Assembly (NCBI GenBank): GCA_030647355.1
Contig: JAUSIS010000009.1
Location: forward strand, 512-64,511
Length of the DNA stretch: 64,000 nucleotides
Direction of reading: 5' to 3'
From: a bacterium
Lineage (GTDB): Bacteria; Patescibacteriota; UBA1384; VFKW01
The notes below the pieces were generated by a model. It was not told the DNA's origin and ran no database searches. It was given only the letters and a program-made list of their open reading frames with translations. Made by a program: the position numbers and the translations under genes. The stretch's first letter is position 1, and each line of letters begins with the position of its first letter. Positions 1,533-49,911 of this stretch are shown here, in pieces.

Positions 1533-2564
1533 TTGGATAATAAACATGGAGATAATATGGAACAAGAAAAGAAACTTGTGTTAGATATACCGGTGGCGAC
1601 TATTCTTAAGGTTTTTGCGGTTATTATTGGGTTAGTACTACTCTATCTGGTAAAAGACGTAATTATATTATTTATATTGGTGTTAATATTTTTCTCTGTT
1701 TTGAATCCAATTATCAATAGGTGGGAAGAAGAAATGTCGCGTAGAGCGGCTATTGCCGCCTTATTTATTATTATTATATTATTCGTTGTTGCAGTCGGAT
1801 TGTTGATCATTCCACCTTTAGTAGGGCAAGTGCAATCATTTATCAACCATCTTCCAACTTATATCAAAAAGATAGCACCACTTTTAAGCGAACCGATTCT
1901 TAAGGGTTCGGAAGGAGCATTGTCGTCTTTGTCGGGACAGATAGGGCGATTTGGCGTCACAATATTTAATACGACGATTGGCTTTTTTGGCGGGTTGGTA
2001 GCGATATTCACAGTTATTGTTTCAACCTTCTATCTACTGTCAGATAAGGCGAAAGCAAGTAAATTTGTGATGGGTCTTCCAATTAGACACAAAGAGGCTT
2101 ATTATCGCTTATTTGATCAAATTAGCGATAAGATGGGCTTATGGGTAAGAGGGCAGTTAACATTAATGCTTGTAGTGGGTACTTTGGATTTAATCGGACT
2201 ATTAATATTAGGTGTTCCCTATGCATTAACCCTAGGTGTCTGGTCGGGATTGACGGAATTAATTCCTTATGTGGGTCCGATATTAGGTGCTATTCCGGCA
2301 GTTCTGATTGCGCTATCACTAAGTCCACTGAAGGCGCTGGGTGTGGTCATTGTTTATATTATAGTTCAGCAGATTGAAGCTCAGGTATTAGTCCCCCGAA
2401 TAATGGGTAAAGCAGTTGGATTAAGCCCAGTAGTGATAATTTTTGCTATATTAATCGGAGCGAAGCTGATGGGTCTACTAGGTATCTTACTGGCCGTTCC
2501 TATTGCAGCAGCAATTAGCGTATTAGTTCGCGAGTATCCAAATTTATTCCCCGATAAGGGTTAG
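1533..2564 (+). CDS. AI-2E family transporter (PerM/YhhT-like, UPF0118)
   Basis: 8 predicted TM helices and conserved C-terminal block ELIPYVGPILGAIPAVLIAL...QQIEAQVLVPRIMGKAVGLSPVVI. Confidence 0.8.
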   Translation: MDNKHGDNMEQEKKLVLDIPVATILKVFAVIIGLVLLYLVKDVIILFILVLIFFSVLNPIINRWEEEMSRRAAIAALFIIIILFVVAVGLLIIPPLVGQVQSFINHLPTYIKKIAPLLSEPILKGSEGALSSLSGQIGRFGVTIFNTTIGFFGGLVAIFTVIVSTFYLLSDKAKASKFVMGLPIRHKEAYYRLFDQISDKMGLWVRGQLTLMLVVGTLDLIGLLILGVPYALTLGVWSGLTELIPYVGPILGAIPAVLIALSLSPLKALGVVIVYIIVQQIEAQVLVPRIMGKAVGLSPVVIIFAILIGAKLMGLLGILLAVPIAAAISVLVREYPNLFPDKG

Positions 2565-2601
2565 TTCTCCAAGTTTAGAAAGTTAGTATATAGTAGTTTG
2601 T

Positions 2602-3459
2602 TTACCGATCGAGTAGTTTTTCTGTATCAATTAAACCATTATTTTGACTCACTAGAGTGCCTTTTTGCAAAACAGGTATTTGTTTTTCATAAGTTGGACC
2701 CGAGGCTTCATGAATAACGCCAATAGGAATATGGTCTCCCCACAGCCTTACTTTTTCGAAGGCTTGGGTAAGATCGGACTTATCATAAGTAGCATCATCA
2801 ACTAACTTATAAACCCTGCTTTTGTAATATTCTAGAGTATTAATCTTGTTAAAAGAAACACAGGGCGACAGGACATCAACAATCGAGAATCCATCATGAG
2901 AAATTGCTTGGGCAAATATTTCGCTTAAACCTGTATTATCTCCTGCCCAGCCTCTGGCTATAAAAGTGGCGCCAGAAGCGAGAGCAACTAAGAGCGGATT
3001 TATAGGATTTTCGATAGTTCCTTCTGGGGTGGGACCACTGATGAACTTTTTTTCGCTAGTAGGAGACGCCTGACCTTTTGTTAGGGCGTAGACTTGGTTA
3101 TCATTTACTATGACAGTGATGTTAATATTTCGTCGGGCGGCATGCAAGATATGATTGCCCCCTTCGGCAAATAAACCCCCGTCACCACCAATAGCAATAA
3201 CATGAAGTTTGTGGTTTGCTAGTTTTATACCTTGAGCCAAGGGAATAACACGACCATGCAGACCGGTAAATGTATTCACTTCGACATAGTCTGTAAGTTT
3301 ACTAGAGCAACCAATATCGCCAGCTAAGACAATATCGTGCGGTTTATAGTTCAATGTTTTCAATGCGTTCTTCAGGGCGGCAATGATGCTAAAATTCCCA
3401 CAACCCGGACACCAGGTGATTTGATTTTTATTATCAAAATTGTTTTCTGGTTCAGTCAT
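2602..3459 (-). CDS. korB: 2-oxoacid:ferredoxin oxidoreductase beta subunit (TPP-binding)
   Basis: WCPGCGNF motif near N-terminus, GDIGCS and TPP-binding GDG...N motif; 8-bp overlap with upstream alpha subunit. Confidence 0.85.
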   Translation of the reverse strand: MTEPENNFDNKNQITWCPGCGNFSIIAALKNALKTLNYKPHDIVLAGDIGCSSKLTDYVEVNTFTGLHGRVIPLAQGIKLANHKLHVIAIGGDGGLFAEGGNHILHAARRNINITVIVNDNQVYALTKGQASPTSEKKFISGPTPEGTIENPINPLLVALASGATFIARGWAGDNTGLSEIFAQAISHDGFSIVDVLSPCVSFNKINTLEYYKSRVYKLVDDATYDKSDLTQAFEKVRLWGDHIPIGVIHEASGPTYEKQIPVLQKGTLVSQNNGLIDTEKLLDR

Positions 3460-7374: not shown

Positions 7375-8445
7375 TCACCGGGTCTGTCGTTGCTTGATTC
7401 CCTCGATGCACTTATCGAGGGGCATCTTGCGACCGATCAGCTGGCTAAGGTAGTAGAGGTAGGGATAGCCTGATATTGCAGGATCATCCGAGTTTTCGGT
7501 TTCCAGGAAGATACCGCCCCGAGCAAGTAGTTTCTGAACTATCCTGATATTGCGATAGCTTTCCACTACTCCCTTTTCCTGGGCTCGGCGCAAGGCCATA
7601 TCAACCGGCATTCCCTCGGCTAGGTATTGGCCGAATGCCGTGTTCCGGCTGATATTGCCCGGTTGCTGGCAAAGTAAGAGGTCTGCCATGAGCGTCATCT
7701 TCTCGTCAGAGCCATCTTGGCGAGTTTGCCGCTTTGTCCCCAGGACTTTCAGCAGACGCCAGTACTCATCGTATATACCCGCCATCGCTGTGGCATAACT
7801 ACCGAGCTCACCTGATAGGCAATGCTGGACGATGGACGTTTCGCAGGAGGTAATGGTCCGGAGGAAACCTCCATAGCACATTCCGGTCGGATCCAAGCTC
7901 AACCGCCCCCAGATCTTTGTTCCTGTGAATAGATCCCGGAAGCGCTTGGCAGAATCCCAGCTTCTCTTGCCAGATGCGATTATCATACGTGTCCATTCAC
8001 CGGCTGCCATATTCTCACCGAAGCCGGCGCCGGTATACTGGATAATATGCGCCAGCGGAAAGTGATGGCGAACAACCTGGAACGGCGTCTCGAGATTGTC
8101 GTTCAATCCCTTCTGCATAGTCACCAGGGTAGCCGTCTTCTCGTTGAGATTATCGATGAGTTGTAAGGTCGGTTCAAGCCCCGCCATTGAAGGGGCTAGC
8201 AGTATATAGTCGTAACCGTTTGCATTGATACGGTCACTGGTGACTATAGCCAGTCCATCCGGTGTATCATAGTCTTGCATCCAAGGGTATCGACTGCAGT
8301 AGTCGAATGTCTGCCAGCTGTCCATCATCCTACGATCAATATCCCAAATGGACGTAGGGACACCGGCTTGCTTGGTCAAGACCATTGCTGTGCCGAAACC
8401 GAAGGTACCGGCACCGAGGATGAGGATTCTGGGCTGCTCAGTCAT
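7375..8445 (-). CDS. gpsA: NAD(P)H-dependent glycerol-3-phosphate dehydrogenase-like protein
   Basis: N-terminal Rossmann ILILGAGTFGFGTAMVL, C-terminal GpsA-like helical domain; high GC; ATGA overlap with plsY fusion gene. Confidence 0.6.
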   Translation of the reverse strand: MTEQPRILILGAGTFGFGTAMVLTKQAGVPTSIWDIDRRMMDSWQTFDYCSRYPWMQDYDTPDGLAIVTSDRINANGYDYILLAPSMAGLEPTLQLIDNLNEKTATLVTMQKGLNDNLETPFQVVRHHFPLAHIIQYTGAGFGENMAAGEWTRMIIASGKRSWDSAKRFRDLFTGTKIWGRLSLDPTGMCYGGFLRTITSCETSIVQHCLSGELGSYATAMAGIYDEYWRLLKVLGTKRQTRQDGSDEKMTLMADLLLCQQPGNISRNTAFGQYLAEGMPVDMALRRAQEKGVVESYRNIRIVQKLLARGGIFLETENSDDPAISGYPYLYYLSQLIGRKMPLDKCIEGIKQRQTR

Positions 8446-10166
8446 TTCACACCTCCAGGAAGATCGGCGGCGGCGAGGAAGGCTCGAAAACGAGAATCGG
8501 TAAGCGGCTCATCGAACTGCCGTCTGCCAACTACCCGGAAGCCATGTTGGTCAGCCAGTTCGGAGAGATAATCCAGCCATTCTGGAGAAATCCCATCTGA
8601 GATGGAATATACTCCGTTTTTACGACCAGCCAATCCCAGCAGAAATGTTTCGGTCATACAGCCAAACAGCGTACCGGGACGGAAGCCGAAGTTGAATGTC
8701 TGGTCTAACACCTCGGGCGCTGCGACAATCCCACCATCTATAACCAAGAGGGACTGGCGCCTATCAACCTCTCTGGCAATGTCGCGCGGGCGAGCCAGGT
8801 CAATGATGATAGACCCGCGTTGGAAGTCTTCGCTTTCGATCTTCAGTCCACCAATTGCACTGGTGACTGTGACAAAAAGCTTAGAGCTTTTCAGCGCCTC
8901 ACTTAGCGTTACTACCCGAGCGTTGGTCAGTTGATACCGTCTTATGAACGGCTCTAGATCGGCCTGATGCTTGACCAGCAGCAGTTCCTTGACATGTGGC
9001 GCCAGGAGAATTGCTACCGACTTACCCACAGAACCGACTCCAACGATGGCAACTGATTCCCGGGAGAGATCATAACCGGCCTTCCCGACGATCGCCATGA
9101 ATGCTTCGACACCGCTGACGGATGTGTAGCCGTTGCCAGTAGTTATGGCGAGTCTGTCCTTGAACGTATCGCCGATAACCTTGCCGCCTTCACCGGCAAT
9201 CGAGGTATAGCCGCCGAGGCCAACAACCGCGCATCCCTGCATTTCCAGGTACCCAACGGCTTTGGTGATAACTGGTACTGTTTTGCAAGAGGGCCACTTT
9301 TTGAGCTCGCTGGCAGTGAGAGGCACTCCATGGAAGATCATCTCGATAACTTGTCCGGTTCGACTGCGGATAGTGATTCTACCCATTGAGTAGAAAACAA
9401 CCGGGATCGCTCGACGAAGGACATTGAAGACAAACCGAGCCGGCAGGTATTTCATGAACTTAAACTTCTGGGAGGCTTTCTCTTTGAAGAACTTCGGATC
9501 GTTTGTTGTGTTGACAACAAATCCCATCCGGAGAACACCAGGGCGAGGCGGTTTCTTTGCCCACTTCTTTTTTGTTAAGTCTTCCCAGATCGTTGGTTCC
9601 TTTCCTGCCCACAGTCGCTTGATGTTGGAGTGATGCTTGAGGATGATGAGCAAGGAAAAGATAGACAGCGGCACAGAAATCCAGTGGCTTGGCTCGAAGA
9701 GGAGAGAAAGCAGAGCCAGAGCAAGGGCAGCGATGATTGTGGCAAGTGACACATAGCCCCCTAGGATCAGGGCAACTAGCCAGATGCCAAAGACAATGAA
9801 GCCCAGAGCAGGGTTCACTCCAAAGACAACGCCAAGCGAGGTAGCGGCGGCTTTGCCGCCTTTGAACTTGAGGAATACCGAGCAGAAATGCCCGAGGATT
9901 GCCATGCCCCCAACTAAGATAATACCATCAGGAAGAGCATGACAAAGACGGTAGATAACAACCGGCAGAAGACCTTTCGTCACGTCGAGAAAGAAGGTCG
10001 CGATCCCCCAAGGTACCCAACCAATAACTCGACCGACATTGGTGGCGCCGATGTTTCCGCTTCCCATCTTCATGAGATTTACCCCTTTGGCCTTACAGAT
10101 CCAGACTCCAAAGGGAAGAGAACCGATGAAGTACGATACGATGCTGAACGCTATCAGCAGTTTCAT
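8442..10166 (-). CDS. plsY: glycerol-3-phosphate acyltransferase PlsY fused to C-terminal acyl-ACP reductase (AAR)-like NAD(P)-binding dehydrogenase domain
   Basis: N-terminal 200 aa: 5 TM helices and PlsY signature GSGNIGATN. C-terminal 370 aa: GLGGYTSIAGEG...ITTGNGYTS...AIVGVGSVGKS...IDGG...FGCMTETFLLGLAG aligns by eye to cyanobacterial AAR blocks including catalytic Cys. Confidence 0.7.
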   Translation of the reverse strand: MKLLIAFSIVSYFIGSLPFGVWICKAKGVNLMKMGSGNIGATNVGRVIGWVPWGIATFFLDVTKGLLPVVIYRLCHALPDGIILVGGMAILGHFCSVFLKFKGGKAAATSLGVVFGVNPALGFIVFGIWLVALILGGYVSLATIIAALALALLSLLFEPSHWISVPLSIFSLLIILKHHSNIKRLWAGKEPTIWEDLTKKKWAKKPPRPGVLRMGFVVNTTNDPKFFKEKASQKFKFMKYLPARFVFNVLRRAIPVVFYSMGRITIRSRTGQVIEMIFHGVPLTASELKKWPSCKTVPVITKAVGYLEMQGCAVVGLGGYTSIAGEGGKVIGDTFKDRLAITTGNGYTSVSGVEAFMAIVGKAGYDLSRESVAIVGVGSVGKSVAILLAPHVKELLLVKHQADLEPFIRRYQLTNARVVTLSEALKSSKLFVTVTSAIGGLKIESEDFQRGSIIIDLARPRDIAREVDRRQSLLVIDGGIVAAPEVLDQTFNFGFRPGTLFGCMTETFLLGLAGRKNGVYSISDGISPEWLDYLSELADQHGFRVVGRRQFDEPLTDSRFRAFLAAADLPGGVK

Positions 10167-34889: not shown

Positions 34890-35639
34890 ATGATATATGT
34901 ATTGATAGTTTTGTTTATTTTATTGCTTGCGGCAATAAGAATTGTTCAGCAATATGAGAAAGGCGTAGTTCTTCGGGTAGGGAGAGTTATCGGGGAAAAG
35001 CAACCGGGACTTAGATTGCTCATTCCAATCATTGATAGAATGTATAAAGTTACACTGCAGATTGTGACAATGCCCGTTCCTTCGCAAAAAATCATAACCA
35101 GAGACAATGTCTCAATTGATGTTGCGGCAGTGGCTTATTATCACGTAGTTAATGCAACAAAATCTATAGTAGCAATTCAAAATGTCTATTCGGCAGTCAA
35201 TCAGATTGCCCAGACAACGGTGAGAAATATTGTGGGGCAATTTATGCTCGACGAGGTTCTTTCCGACACGGATAAGATTAATAAAAAAATCAAAGAGATT
35301 ATTGATACTCACACTGAAGCTTGGGGTGTGCTAGTTACGACAGTCGAGATCAAGGATATTCAGTTGCCCGATACGATGCAGAGAGCAATGGCAAAACAGG
35401 CAGAGGCAGAAAGAGAAAAGCGGGCAAAGATTATTGCTGCTGAGGGAGAATTTCAGTCGGCAGATAAATTGGGCGGAGCGGCTGATATAATTGCTAAACA
35501 CCCAATTGCCCTGCAGCTCCGAAACTTACAAGTATTGTCAGAAATCGCCGTTGAGAAAAATTCGACAATTGTGTTCCCTAATTCATTTTTATCGACAGTT
35601 GACGATGTTAAAAAGTTTATGGCTTCCGAGAAAGTGTAA
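34890..35639 (+). CDS. SPFH/band-7 (stomatin/HflC-like) protein
   Basis: N-terminal [18 protein letters not shown]...[16 protein letters not shown] pattern; promoter GTGACT-17-TGtTATAAT at 34842-34870. Confidence 0.8.
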
Positions 35640-35642
35640 ATG

Positions 35643-35708
35643 ATAAAAATACAAAAAGCGCCTAGAGAAATCCGGGCGCTTTTTGTAAAATAATCACTTG
35701 GTGGAGCT
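35643..35708. repeat. 66-bp direct repeat copy 1 (terminator hairpin plus tmRNA 3'-end-like 10 nt)
   Basis: ATAAAAATACAAAAAGCGCCTAGAGAAATCCGGGCGCTTTTTGTAAAATAATCACTTGGTGGAGCT; identical except 1 nt to 37288-37353. Confidence 0.85.
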
Positions 35709-35975
35709 AGTGCAAAAGAATTGGCACTTAATTTGTGACAAAGTGAAGCACTGGAGAGAAATATTGGGTAATGATTATAATAAATGGAAGTTGTCAAATA
35801 ATAGCTCAAATATTGATTACATCCTTTAGGATAGTATCACTGTAATACACACTACTTGATTTTTTACCCTTGTTAGTATAGCATGCAGGTGTATAGATAA
35901 TAATATTGATATAGATAGTAAGTTAATAAGCGTTTAATTTTTCTCCTATTTAGGGGACGAGAAAGGAGCACTAGA

Positions 35976-36551
35976 ATGGAACCAAAAGAGAATAAGCGTA
36001 GAATGTCAACGGGTAAAAAATTCGGTCTAGGTTGTTTGGGGCTAATCGTTTTGATTATAATTATTTCAATTGCATCAAATAGTGGAAAAAATGACACTAG
36101 AAAGGTTGGTGATTCACCAACTGCTAGTACAACAAGTACAAGCAATGATAATAAGATTTATAAGGTTGGGGATAGCGTCCAATTGGGAAAAGCAATTGTA
36201 ACTGTAAATAAAGTTGAATCATCAACAGGGAGTACCTATACAAAGCCAGCAAGTGGGAATAAATGGATAAACTTAAATATCACTGTTGAAAATACAGATT
36301 CTTCTCAACAATATCTTACGACAATGGGGCAAATGTTCGTTAAGGATAGCGATGGCAATAGTTTTCAAGTTGCAGTAACCGATAAAGTTATGGAAAGTGT
36401 AAATAATTCACTTGACGGAACTATTATCGCAAAGAGCAAGAGAACTGGTTGGGTCGGATTTGAGGTAAAGAATGAATCGAAAGGTTTGCAGTTCCAATAT
36501 AATGCCTCTATGTGGGGTAGTGGTACTATTACCGTTGACCTAGGACAATAA
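35976..36551 (+). CDS. DUF4352 domain lipoprotein-like secreted protein
   Basis: N-terminal TM/signal anchor, YKVGDSVQLGKAIVTVNKVE...GNKWINLNITVENTDSS...VKDSDGNSF pattern. Confidence 0.6.
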   Translation: MEPKENKRRMSTGKKFGLGCLGLIVLIIIISIASNSGKNDTRKVGDSPTASTTSTSNDNKIYKVGDSVQLGKAIVTVNKVESSTGSTYTKPASGNKWINLNITVENTDSSQQYLTTMGQMFVKDSDGNSFQVAVTDKVMESVNNSLDGTIIAKSKRTGWVGFEVKNESKGLQFQYNASMWGSGTITVDLGQ

Positions 36552-36737
36552 GCAATCATAGTTCTTAACTAATACTCAATTAAGCAGAAAACCCTTGAGT
36601 AAAAATCGAGGGTTTTCTGTATTACATTGATCAAATACTGGCCCTAACGGGCTCTTGAGAATAGAAGCGAATCATGCCCGATTTGACAAAAAATGGTTAT
36701 ATAGGATAAAATAAAAACGCTTTAAGCATTTTTTTGT

Positions 36738-37211
36738 TTGGTACATACTTCCAATAATTCTGGAATTTTATATAATGAACAAATGATGATTAGTTTTCAA
36801 CCTATAATCAGAGCTTGCCGCGAAACAGATATAAAACTGTTGGAAAAGTATTTTTCTGGTGATGAGGAGAACCACCGGGCAAGATTAGATAGACAAAAGA
36901 AGGGTCTAAGTATTTATTTGATAGCTCTTATAGATAGTAGGCCTGTGGGTCATTTAGATATTAGATGGCAAGGGTGCAAAAATGAAAAAGTTAAGAATTT
37001 TGTGGGTGAATGTCCAGAACTGAGCGCTATTGCAGTTCGTCCAAATTTTCGTTCGAAAGGTATTGGAACAAATTTGGTTAAATCTGCAGAAAAAATAGTT
37101 GCCAATGAAAGGTTCGAACAAGTCGGAATAGGGGTTGGAATTGAAAACGAGAGAGCAAAAAAATTATATGAAAGATTGGGGACAAGGTATTTATATCGAC
37201 GCCTGGACTAA
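36738..37211 (+). CDS. GNAT family N-acetyltransferase (true start possibly 36783/36786)
   Basis: AIAVRPNFRSKGIGTNLVKSAEK acetyl-CoA binding motif (Q/RxxGxG/A). Confidence 0.7.
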   Translation: MVHTSNNSGILYNEQMMISFQPIIRACRETDIKLLEKYFSGDEENHRARLDRQKKGLSIYLIALIDSRPVGHLDIRWQGCKNEKVKNFVGECPELSAIAVRPNFRSKGIGTNLVKSAEKIVANERFEQVGIGVGIENERAKKLYERLGTRYLYRRLD

Positions 37212-37287
37212 AGAGTCAGGTGAAAAAGTTCGTGATGAAGCAATATTTCTTATAAAAAAATTTAACTTATAACAACTAAAATGAGTT

Positions 37288-37353
37288 ATAAAAACACAAA
37301 AAGCGCCTAGAGAAATCCGGGCGCTTTTTGTAAAATAATCACTTGGTGGAGCT
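37288..37353. repeat. 66-bp direct repeat copy 2 (contains tmRNA 3' end and its terminator)
   Basis: See copy 1; overlaps last 10 nt of ssrA (AGCTCCACCA on minus strand). Confidence 0.85.
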
Positions 37354-37724
37354 GGGGAGAATCGCACTCCCGTCCAGAAATTTTTCAACGTATCATCTAC
37401 AAGCTTAGTTTGTTCTTCATCTTTAGTACAATCTCTAGAACAAACGGAACAATTGCACTGCAGTCTCATAGAGACTTAGACTAACGCGAGACTTAATTAG
37501 TTTGCAATCCGATTTTTTGGCGTTCTGTCTAGTGCCTTCGGCATCGAGTCACTAGGGAACGGCTTTCGGTTTTAGGCGAAAGCTGGCGCAAAAGTCATGC
37601 CAGCAAAAGCTGTCTTGACTCTGCTAATAAATGTATTGGCACTTATTGTTGTGTTTAATTCGTATCGTGAATTTGACGACTTGCAGATACTGTCTTCCAA
37701 CCCCTGTCGAACTATAACAGCCCC
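37344..37724 (-). ncRNA. ssrA: tmRNA (SsrA), 381 nt
   Basis: Minus strand 5' GGGGCUGUUAUAGUUCGACAGGGG... 3' ...GGACGGGAGUGCGAUUCUCCCCAGCUCCACCA: G3-U70 acceptor stem, T-arm and encoded CCA, closely matching E. coli ssrA ends. SmpB gene at 49468. Candidate tag ORF ending ...AFA-UAA. Confidence 0.75.
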
Positions 37725-37773: not shown

Positions 37774-37802
37774 AATATAGCACATTTTAGCGGTTTTGTC
37801 AA
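37774..37802 (-). promoter_or_regulatory. candidate ssrA promoter
   Basis: Minus strand TTGACA-17 nt-TATATT about 50 nt upstream of mature 5' end. Confidence 0.5.
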
Positions 37803-38345: not shown

Positions 38346-39029
38346 ATGAAAGAGATTGAAATAAGACTTAGAGATTTGAGGAAAGAGCACAATTTGAGCC
38401 AGGAAGAGTTGGCATCAAATCTTGGTGTTTCAAGGCAGTCAATAATTTCTTTGGAGCGAGGAGAATATTTACCATCATTACCATTAATTATTGATCTGGT
38501 TAAATTTTTTGAAATCCCTTTTGACGAAATTGTCTGTTGCGAAGGGATTAGAATCGAGAAAGGAGGTGAGATAGAGATGGCAAGAGAAATTACTCCATGG
38601 TCACCTTTTAGAGAGGTGAATAGTCTTCATGATGCAATCGACCGAATGTTTGACGATACTCTAGCTACTTCGCGCATATCACCTATGCCAGCGGTGACTC
38701 CCCCTTCTATCAACCTGAGAGAAACCGATAAATCTATTATTGCCGAGGTAGAATTGCCCGGGGTTAAAGACGAGGATATTGATGTTGAGATATCAGAAGA
38801 CTCGATCACCATCACAGGAGAAAAGAAAACCGAACAAGAAATAAAAGAAAAGGATTATTATCGCAAAGAATTCAGTTATGGATCTTTCGCTAGAACTATC
38901 CCTTTACCTGTTGTGGTAATTTCTGATAAGGCGGAAGCAAAGTTGAAAGAGGGCGTACTGACAGTAGAGGTGCCCAAGGCGGAGGCGCCAAAGGCAAAAG
39001 CGAAGAAGATACAGATTAAGAGGCAGTAA
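38346..39029 (+). CDS. XRE-family HTH domain fused in frame to Hsp20/alpha-crystallin small heat-shock protein; internal start at 38577 also likely
   Basis: Residues 1-65 LRDLRKEHNLSQEELASNLGVSRQSIISLERGE (Cro/C1 HTH); residues 78-227 alpha-crystallin domain (PSINLRETDKSIIAEVELPGVKDEDIDVEI...GVLTVEVPK); AAAGGAGGTGA SD 7 nt before in-frame ATG 38577; no stop between. Confidence 0.7.
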   Translation: MKEIEIRLRDLRKEHNLSQEELASNLGVSRQSIISLERGEYLPSLPLIIDLVKFFEIPFDEIVCCEGIRIEKGGEIEMAREITPWSPFREVNSLHDAIDRMFDDTLATSRISPMPAVTPPSINLRETDKSIIAEVELPGVKDEDIDVEISEDSITITGEKKTEQEIKEKDYYRKEFSYGSFARTIPLPVVVISDKAEAKLKEGVLTVEVPKAEAPKAKAKKIQIKRQ

Positions 39030-49467: not shown

Positions 49468-49911
49468 TTGCTTATGAGTAAAGCTATAGCAGAAAATCGG
49501 AAAGCAAGATTTGATTATGATATTTTAGAAACCCTGGAAGCAGGGATTGTTTTGATTGGAGAGGAAGTTAAGGCAATTAGGGCTGGGAAAGTGAATTTAG
49601 CCGGGAGTTATGGGAAAATTTTAGCAATAGGCGGCAAACCGGAGGTTTGGCTAGTCGGAGCAAATATTGCTACAGCCGAGGGTGATCCCAGCAGAAGCCG
49701 CAAGCTACTTTTGAATCGCAGAGAAGTTGATAACTTAATCGGTAGGGCCCAAGAAAAAGGACTGACGATTTTACCTTTAAAAATGTATCTTAAGCGTGGC
49801 TATATTAAGCTTGAACTGGGAATAGGGCGCGGGAGAAAGAAATATGACAAGCGTGAAAGAATTAAAGAAAGGGAAGTCTCCAAAGAATTAAGGCAAAAGC
49901 GAATGAGCTAA
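49468..49911 (+). CDS. smpB: SsrA-binding protein
   Basis: NRKARFDY...EAGIVLIGEEVKAIRAGK...SRKLLLNRRE...KKYDKRE blocks. Confidence 0.85.
   Translation: MLMSKAIAENRKARFDYDILETLEAGIVLIGEEVKAIRAGKVNLAGSYGKILAIGGKPEVWLVGANIATAEGDPSRSRKLLLNRREVDNLIGRAQEKGLTILPLKMYLKRGYIKLELGIGRGRKKYDKRERIKEREVSKELRQKRMS

Follow-up and report, generated by a model that had tools for sequence, protein, structure and literature searches.

What has placed a second copy of the 3' end of a transfer-messenger RNA (tmRNA) gene, complete with its terminator, 1.6 kb away from the gene itself? The question is raised by a 64,000-nucleotide stretch of DNA, here called the window (GenBank assembly GCA_030647355.1, contig JAUSIS010000009.1, positions 512 to 64,511 of the forward strand), from a member of the Patescibacteriota (GTDB lineage UBA1384; VFKW01). 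In it the tmRNA gene, ssrA, and a displaced copy of its end enclose a segment with two genes, one for a DUF4352 protein and one for a GNAT acetyltransferase. On balance this segment is probably an islet, decayed or cis-mobilizable, that recombination has inserted at the 3' end of ssrA. Three lines of evidence are considered: the nearly perfect direct repeat that brackets the segment, the state of its genes, and the content of the same position in the nearest relative, where the gene of a large serine recombinase is found. All positions are those of the window unless a comparison locus is named; fetched comparison loci carry handles beginning with L, and protein records handles beginning with P.

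The tmRNA gene

37344-37724, minus strand: one-piece tmRNA gene (ssrA) with encoded CCA (ARAGORN and Rfam RF00023)
37572-37640, minus strand: tag reading frame, from the resume codon GCC to UAA, encoding ANTFISRVKTAFAGMTFAPAFA (ARAGORN, gene positions 85-153)
37774-37802, minus strand: promoter-like site of ssrA, TTGACA-17-TATATT with an extended TG (consensus scan, 11/12; a consensus match only)

An earlier note, made from the letters and open reading frames (ORFs) of the window, had proposed a tmRNA gene at this place and had named RF00023 and ARAGORN, run on the minus strand, as the check. Both were run, and both find the gene at 37344-37724, with identical coordinates. The RF00023 match covers the whole model (1-374 of 374) at 118.2 bits, the gathering score being 47, with an E-value of 1.5e-45. 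The termini that the note had quoted can be read in the sequence: the RNA starts with GGGGCUG, which pairs with CAGCUCC in an acceptor stem of 7 bp that includes the G3-U pair, and is followed by ACCA. The 3' end is CAGCUCCACCA, with the CCA encoded, and the T-arm is GGGAG-UGCGAUU-CUCCC. The tag frame, placed by the note about 85 nt from the 5' end, occupies gene positions 85-153 in the ARAGORN prediction; at 22 residues the tag is long. SmpB, assigned by the note to position 49468, is encoded at 49468-49911 on the plus strand (PF01668, E-value 1.3e-45). The features by which a tmRNA is recognized, namely a covariance match, a tRNA-Ala-like domain, a tag frame without AUG and an SmpB partner, are all present. 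The promoter-like site is located upstream of the mature 5' end, at a distance of about 50 nt, and, as judged from its sequence, ssrA is an intact and functional-looking gene.

The direct repeat and its terminators

34890-35639, plus strand: slipin/band-7 gene, the left flank, convergent with ssrA (PF01145, E-value 9e-37)
35643-35708: direct repeat, copy 1, 65/66 identical to copy 2 (repeat search, exact core search and alignment)
35653-35684: terminator hairpin in copy 1 (-23.4 kcal/mol, z -4.8)
37288-37353: direct repeat, copy 2, consisting of the last 10 nt of ssrA (37344-37353) and 56 nt of its trailer (same basis as copy 1)
37298-37329: hairpin of copy 2, a bidirectional intrinsic terminator (-22 kcal/mol on either strand, z -4.4 and -4.6)

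The repeat of 66 bp with a single difference was recovered by the repeat search exactly where the earlier note had put it, and the alignment of the two copies, also proposed there, gave 65 identities in 66 positions. The one mismatch, T/C, is at repeat position 8 and leaves an exact core of 58 nt. Measured from start to start the copies are 1,645 nt apart. Copy 1 begins 3 nt past the stop codon of the band-7 gene, and within it the displaced fragment of ssrA, 10 nt in length, occupies 35699-35708. The 56-nt core of the repeat has exactly two occurrences in the 64 kb, against none expected in shuffled sequences, and a third copy was not found within the window. The borders are sharp: neither alignment nor short-word blastn of both flanks revealed any similarity past either of them. 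A degraded second tmRNA, or further homology of another kind, beside copy 1 was considered and rejected, the blastn of the flanks having given only words at the level of chance (among them a 17-nt match between 35714-35730 and 37629-37645). Readings as a miniature inverted-repeat transposable element or another dispersed repeat were set aside on the copy number of two in the window.

The repeat contains a hairpin, AAAAAGCGCC-N12-GGCGCTTTTT (the 3' arm is also written GGCGCUUUUU). Because it folds on both strands, each time with a U-run behind it, it is taken to be a bidirectional intrinsic terminator. In copy 2 the hairpin starts after a spacer of 14 nt from the CCA and is the predicted terminator both of ssrA, on the minus strand, and of the GNAT transcript, on the plus strand; in copy 1 it is the predicted terminator that now serves the band-7 gene.

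It might be asked whether the copies are simply two independent look-alike terminators, or members of a dispersed terminator family, with no insertion having taken place. Both do sit where a terminator is needed, one after the band-7 gene and the other after GNAT and ssrA. The identity of 65/66, however, takes in 10 nt of the acceptor/CCA end of ssrA, there are only two copies where none would be expected, and the other fetched tmRNA genes, including those of relatives, each have in the same place a terminator of their own that is unrelated in sequence to that of the window. The earlier note had itself named two independent terminators, with the same arrangement in related genomes, as one of the outcomes that would speak against its proposal; the near-identity and the ssrA fragment effectively exclude it. 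As far as sequence can tell, this reading is effectively refuted, and we hold it to be highly improbable. Since copy 1 includes 10 nt of ssrA, it is a displaced fragment of the 3' end of that gene and not an independent terminator.

The genes between the repeats

35976-36551, plus strand: cargo gene 1, DUF4352 protein of 191 amino acids with an N-terminal membrane anchor (PF11611, E-value 4.6e-22; phrog_806, E-value 1.8e-21)
36584-36620, plus strand: strong terminator hairpin between the cargo genes (-25.2 kcal/mol, z -8.05)
36683-36712, plus strand: promoter-like site of the GNAT gene, TTGACA-18-TAAAAT (consensus scan, 11/12)
36783-37272, plus strand: cargo gene 2, a GNAT acetyltransferase with a frameshift near 37174-37182 (PF00583; second frame; homologue alignment)

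The ORFs and their Pfam matches (PF11611 and PF00583) agree with the earlier note in that the interval holds two genes only, DUF4352 and GNAT, both on the strand opposite to ssrA. They are independent transcription units of the plus strand, each with its own promoter-like site, and the DUF4352 protein matches a phage protein family, phrog_806.

The GNAT gene is broken, a detail absent from the earlier note. Its first frame (36783-37211, plus strand; PF00583, E-value 6.8e-15) ends in KKLYERLGTRYLYRRLD and a stop at 37211, and the other frame runs through DWGQGIYIDAWTKESGEKVRDEAIFLIKKFNL to a stop at 37270-37272. The conserved C-terminal strands of the acetyltransferase (GIYIDAWTKESGEKVRDEAIFLIKKFNL) are consequently out of frame with the N-terminal 134 residues, and the NCBI annotation has the truncated product of 142 amino acids only (P0187). 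The sole homologue of this GNAT protein among 5.8 billion proteins, P0188, has 44% identity to it and, to judge from the Pfam families of the neighbouring genes, probably comes from a Planctomycete-like context. Across the frame break P0188 reads LYESLGYRDWGHGI, against LYERLG and DWGQGI of the two window frames; because it reads through the break point, both frames are homologous to it. The break would be a frameshifting deletion at the overlapping GATTGGGG, and could be explained if about 14 nt had been lost between short repeats. The independent Logan assembly (contig L001) has the same sequence, which makes an error of sequencing unlikely. Once repaired, the gene would stop 15 nt ahead of repeat copy 2, and therefore it relies on the repeated terminator.

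The closest homologue of the DUF4352 protein, with 70% amino acid and 75% nucleotide identity, is found in Logan runs SRR30681655-59, in a different context and without GNAT or ssrA. In L040, from run SRR30681659, it occupies 1058-1660 on the plus strand, and its neighbours are an uncharacterised protein of 348 amino acids and small membrane and zinc-ribbon proteins without family matches. To judge from the rare and frameshifted GNAT gene, the cargo seems to be accessory; the DUF4352 gene, for its part, matches a phage family and has different neighbours in a relative.

The 3' side of ssrA in related genomes

The lineage is sparsely sampled. The nearest relatives have about 70-75% nucleotide identity to the window, nothing closer being present in the collections searched, and the clusters at 90% identity of the band-7 and Hsp20 proteins hold the sequence of the window alone. 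A scan for the pattern of the ssrA T-arm and acceptor stem gave 4 matches in the GTDB species genomes and 20 in JGI metagenomes, with L003 as the sole close relative. Most of the others share the last 32-44 nt only and a few about 70 nt; some looked like two-piece tmRNAs.

L003, from a Candidatus Berkelbacteria metagenome-assembled genome (MAG; VFKW01000103.1), is the nearest relative, with about 75% nucleotide identity over ssrA, the YHS gene, the helix-turn-helix (HTH)/Hsp20 gene and tRNA-Val. On the 5' side of ssrA it is syntenic with the window (tRNA-Val, HTH-Hsp20 and YHS), and its tag, ANTFVSKIKTAFAGMTFAPAFA, is near-identical to that of the window despite a divergence of some 25% of nucleotides across the locus. 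On the 3' side about 20 nt of the trailer after the CCA can be aligned, and similarity stops at the start of the window hairpin. Here L003 has an ORF (2198-3451, minus strand) that is convergent with ssrA, overlaps its last 65 nt and runs to the end of the contig. Because it matches Recombinase, Zn_ribbon_recom and phrog_95 'integrase' (E-value 2.9e-42), this ORF is identified as the C-terminal two-thirds of a large serine recombinase. A search of the PDB sequences with it gave no match.

The other relatives agree in that the gene content 3' of ssrA differs in every one examined. Anchoring on the HTH-Hsp20 gene led to four loci, L032 to L035, which are syntenic on the 5' side; on the 3' side they are not conserved, or their contigs break inside or upstream of ssrA. 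In L032 the synteny on the 5' side extends over about 10 kb, and on the 3' side ssrA is followed by a terminator of its own and then by GpsA and PlsY. L044 (P0016) is partly syntenic, from dCMP deaminase to band-7, and its contig ends 770 nt past the band-7 gene, after a gene for a Cyt-b5-like membrane protein that the window does not have. A hairpin loop at the end of L044 resembles the repeat loop; it is in the opposite orientation and was treated as coincidence. The band-7 protein was also used as an anchor in looking for an empty site; its homologues with 85-86% identity (L027-L031 and L045) lie in unrelated contexts, the protein being too conserved across the candidate phyla radiation (CPR) to serve as a lineage marker.

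Several other features of these loci were recorded. The tmRNA gene of L032 (8896-9293, minus strand) was missed by ARAGORN and has an Rfam score of 115 bits; it ends in CUCCACUA and not in CUCCACCA, so that its CCA is not encoded. Tandem arrays directly follow the CCA of ssrA in L004 (2775-2900), L021 and L025, all Colwellbacteria-type loci, with units of 33 nt, and in L015, with units of 23 nt. The PlsY-fusion and GpsA genes, which adjoin the 3' end of ssrA in L032 (5945-8695, plus strand), are found in the window at 7375-10166 (minus strand), about 27 kb off, inverted and within a block of high G+C; a rearrangement breakpoint therefore falls at ssrA's 3' end. From 7000 to 32000 the window is a mosaic in which blocks of 49-56% G+C alternate with blocks of 36-39%, the rest being at about 35-42%. 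The high-G+C blocks hold, by reading of the ORFs alone, PlsY/GpsA-, PurL-, phosphoribosyltransferase- and orotidine monophosphate decarboxylase-like genes, and the mosaic suggests either repeated foreign acquisition or a chimeric assembly. Lastly, the gene at 38346-39029 (plus strand) encodes an unusual protein in which an HTH_3 (XRE-type) DNA-binding domain is fused to an Hsp20/alpha-crystallin domain; 66 database hits have the same fusion, and in the syntenic relatives it is kept beside the YHS-domain gene, ssrA and tRNA-Val.

Assembly of the locus

The window is part of an NCBI MAG contig of 82,673 bp. The same population was found in Logan run SRR13727527, an independent assembly with k=31. 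There the cassette, from 35679 to 37325 of the window, forms a contig of its own with 1,647 nt, and the contig that carries band-7 reaches only to 35680. In each case the break is exactly k-1 = 30 nt into the 58-nt exact core, and the contigs independently confirm all four half-junctions. Given breaks at this position, the k=31 graph therefore cannot separate the integrated form from an empty site accompanied by a circle of 1,645 bp.

This bears on the possibility that the chromosome runs directly from band-7 through one copy of the repeat to ssrA, that the 1,645-bp unit is a separate circle or tandem array, or that the population is mixed, and that the assembler threaded the cassette through the repeat. 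A node with two edges in and two out, as in the Logan graph, fits either arrangement. The assembler of the MAG, however, could presumably span a repeat of 58 nt, which is shorter than ordinary Illumina reads, and the T/C difference just outside the exact core is consistent in both assemblies. The cassette has the composition of the host, and its DUF4352 gene has a relative in the lineage. We consider an artefact or mixture of this kind quite improbable; even then, an excised islet together with its empty site would still be the same kind of element.

Proposed origin of the segment between the repeats

The earlier note had read the locus as an att-like scar or a minimal islet. As the most economical account this survives, with circumstantial support from the recombinase of L003, the variable content 3' of ssrA and the decay of GNAT; what does not agree with it is the atypical placement of the repeat and the lack of a contrast in G+C. 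Before the insertion, the bidirectional terminator of the trailer probably lay between the convergent band-7 and ssrA genes. A unit of 1,645 bp, comprising DUF4352, GNAT and one 66-bp copy, would then have entered by a single reciprocal recombination (the direction is one that we infer), with the crossover at the very 3' terminus of ssrA, inside the 58-66 bp that the chromosome had in common with the DNA coming in. Islands integrate at tRNA and tmRNA genes by an event of this type. Such an exchange between a circular DNA and the chromosome would regenerate ssrA and leave the shared segment as flanking direct repeats, copy 1 now ending band-7 and copy 2 ending GNAT and ssrA. As the shared segment contains the terminator, the insertion would have been transcriptionally neutral. 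The single mismatch is near the outer end of the repeat, which is where it would be found had the crossover occurred in the 58-nt core, between an incoming and a resident copy that differed at this base. The identity of 65/66 between the copies, compared with about 75% for orthologous DNA in the closest relative, likewise counts for an insertion, and so does the location, the 3' end of ssrA being a documented site of integration.

Since the insert has no recombinase, it would be either what decay has left of a larger element or a cis-mobilizable islet that depends for its movement on an enzyme acting in trans. The exchange was probably site-specific, and the candidate enzyme is of the large serine recombinase type, as found at the same position in L003. 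The presence of that recombinase at the same end of ssrA, the variable 3' content and the decaying cargo strengthen the islet reading circumstantially. Because GNAT is frameshifted, the islet now appears to be decaying, and recombination between the repeats could remove it again.

A number of observations weigh against this account. Of the 66 repeated bases, 56 are outside ssrA, and classical identity blocks lie mainly inside the gene. The interval holds no integrase or recombinase gene and no recognizable remnant of one, and its intergenic spaces, of 267 and about 230 nt, are too small to accommodate a degraded recombinase. In the 64 kb no integrase-like ORF was seen (by inspection only), and tblastn of the L003 recombinase against the window found no match; the absence of an integrase, reported in the earlier note, is thereby upheld. 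An empty site with a single copy of the repeat was not found in any collection, where the relatives are about 70-75% identical and non-syntenic 3' of ssrA; no relative closer than about 75% being available in the collections searched, there is no empty site for comparison. In neither the viral collection nor the fetched loci did the repeat turn up again, and the population of run SRR13727527 is the sole one on record with this sequence. The insert has a G+C content of about 35-37%, the same as its flanks. The DUF4352 gene diverges from its homologue by no more than core genes do from those of relatives, and on this comparison it may be native to the lineage.

Part of this evidence is what would be expected had a non-replicating circle with the 66-bp segment of the ssrA trailer, or a fragment taken up from a sister strain, been integrated by RecA-dependent (Campbell-type) homologous recombination, or had another duplication or repair event occurred, with no site-specific recombinase and no att function. 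With 58 nt exact and 66 overall the repeat is long, most of it is ordinary trailer and terminator, outside the tRNA-like part of ssrA, and the missing integrase, the composition of the insert and a DUF4352 gene that appears to belong to the lineage are all in keeping. This route, however, leaves unexplained the origin of a circle in which the cargo was already joined to the ssrA trailer, and the inner border of the insert is inside ssrA, exactly where L003 has its recombinase gene. Homology of 58-66 bp is, moreover, near the lower limit for efficient exchange by RecA. We regard the homologous route as unlikely, if by no means negligible.

Four scans of viral contigs, one each with the hairpin of the repeat, the DUF4352 protein, the GNAT in its repaired form and the recombinase of L003, gave no match. 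An integron cassette was rejected: no RYYYAAC or GTTRRRY core sites were found on reading the repeat, there is no IntI-like ORF, and the cargo genes have promoter-like sites of their own.

Comparison with known elements

Islands and prophages of the classical tyrosine-integrase type, found at tRNA and tmRNA genes, are reportedly treated by Williams (2002 and 2003). The islet would share with them integration at the 3' end of a gene that is regenerated and a partial gene copy at the far border; among such islands remnants in degenerate form are common, and so is accretion in tandem. It differs in having neither an integrase beside the intact gene nor a compositional signature, and in an identity block that reaches far into the trailer and includes the terminator.

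The ssrA islands of Dehalococcoides lie between the single-copy ssrA and a repeat, 20 bp in length, of the gene's 3' end. An integration module is missing from about half of them, which have been discussed as cis-mobilizable or fixed, and dsiB, the gene of the serine recombinase, runs on the opposite strand with an overlap of about 70 bp with ssrA (PMC3146451). The element of the window likewise lies directly downstream of ssrA, between this gene and a direct repeat of the gene's 3' end, and the L003 ORF, in overlapping the last 65 nt of ssrA, has the layout of dsiB (DsiB itself was compared by description only). Unlike these islands, the window contains no recombinase, and in particular no dsiB-like large serine recombinase overlapping the 3' end of ssrA (tblastn with the L003 enzyme). 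Its repeat is 66 bp and not 20 bp in length with only 10 bp inside ssrA, its islet has two genes in 1.6 kb whereas the islands are of about 7 kb or more, and its host is CPR/Berkelbacteria-like. Of the features expected of an island integrated at ssrA, the window has a distal direct repeat that includes the 3' end of ssrA (its last 10 nt) and lacks an integrase within the element, where it is usually next to the intact gene.

Cis-mobilizable elements (CIMEs) have lost their integration genes and kept attL and attR (Guedon et al. 2017, PMC5704250). The islet resembles them as a cargo-only segment between direct repeats at the 3' end of a target gene, without integration genes. Its repeats, however, are only putative att sites and its helper element is only hypothetical; CIMEs were described for integrative conjugative and integrative mobilizable element systems in Firmicutes, from recognizable relatives of integrative conjugative elements, and no parent element is known for the window. 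Elements and islands flanked by partial tRNA or tmRNA repeats, with degenerate remnants among them, have also been described in Prochlorococcus as tycheposons (bioRxiv 10.1101/2020.12.28.424599).

The SCCmec/CcrAB elements at rlmH (orfX) are again elements of large serine recombinases (PMC3146451). As in the islet, the 3' end of a single-copy essential gene is targeted and short direct repeats are left; target gene, host and cargo differ, and the window has no ccr-like gene. Recombinase-less SCC-like remnants are known.

These comparisons allow a more specific version of the islet, in which the 1,645-bp unit is a live, minimal cassette without a recombinase. A helper island, like that at ssrA in the sister lineage of L003, would provide in trans the enzyme for its excision and its insertion at the ssrA trailer, a large serine recombinase of the DsiB/CcrB-like type, and its att site would embed the hairpin of the ssrA terminator. 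We think this version decidedly unlikely.

Concluding remarks

The segment between the repeats is most likely the trace of an islet without an integrase at a classic integration hot spot. As a feature it is tidy but ordinary, and it opens neither a new mechanism nor a question of long standing. The more notable by-product is the Dehalococcoides-like overlap of recombinase and ssrA in a Berkelbacteria MAG. For annotators, the repeat of the ssrA 3' fragment and terminator would provide a marker that delimits strain-variable DNA in MAGs. Should the live cassette exist, ssrA-island traffic would be described for the first time in CPR bacteria, and with it the smallest hitchhiker of this type reported from them. 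If the islet reading is correct, the tmRNA gene serves accessory DNA as a landing pad even where the genome is as tiny and streamlined as in this CPR/Berkelbacteria-like bacterium, and very small cargo-only segments can persist there without a recombinase of their own. Together with the serine-recombinase element of L003, it would extend the Dehalococcoides type of ssrA island to another deep-branching uncultured group.

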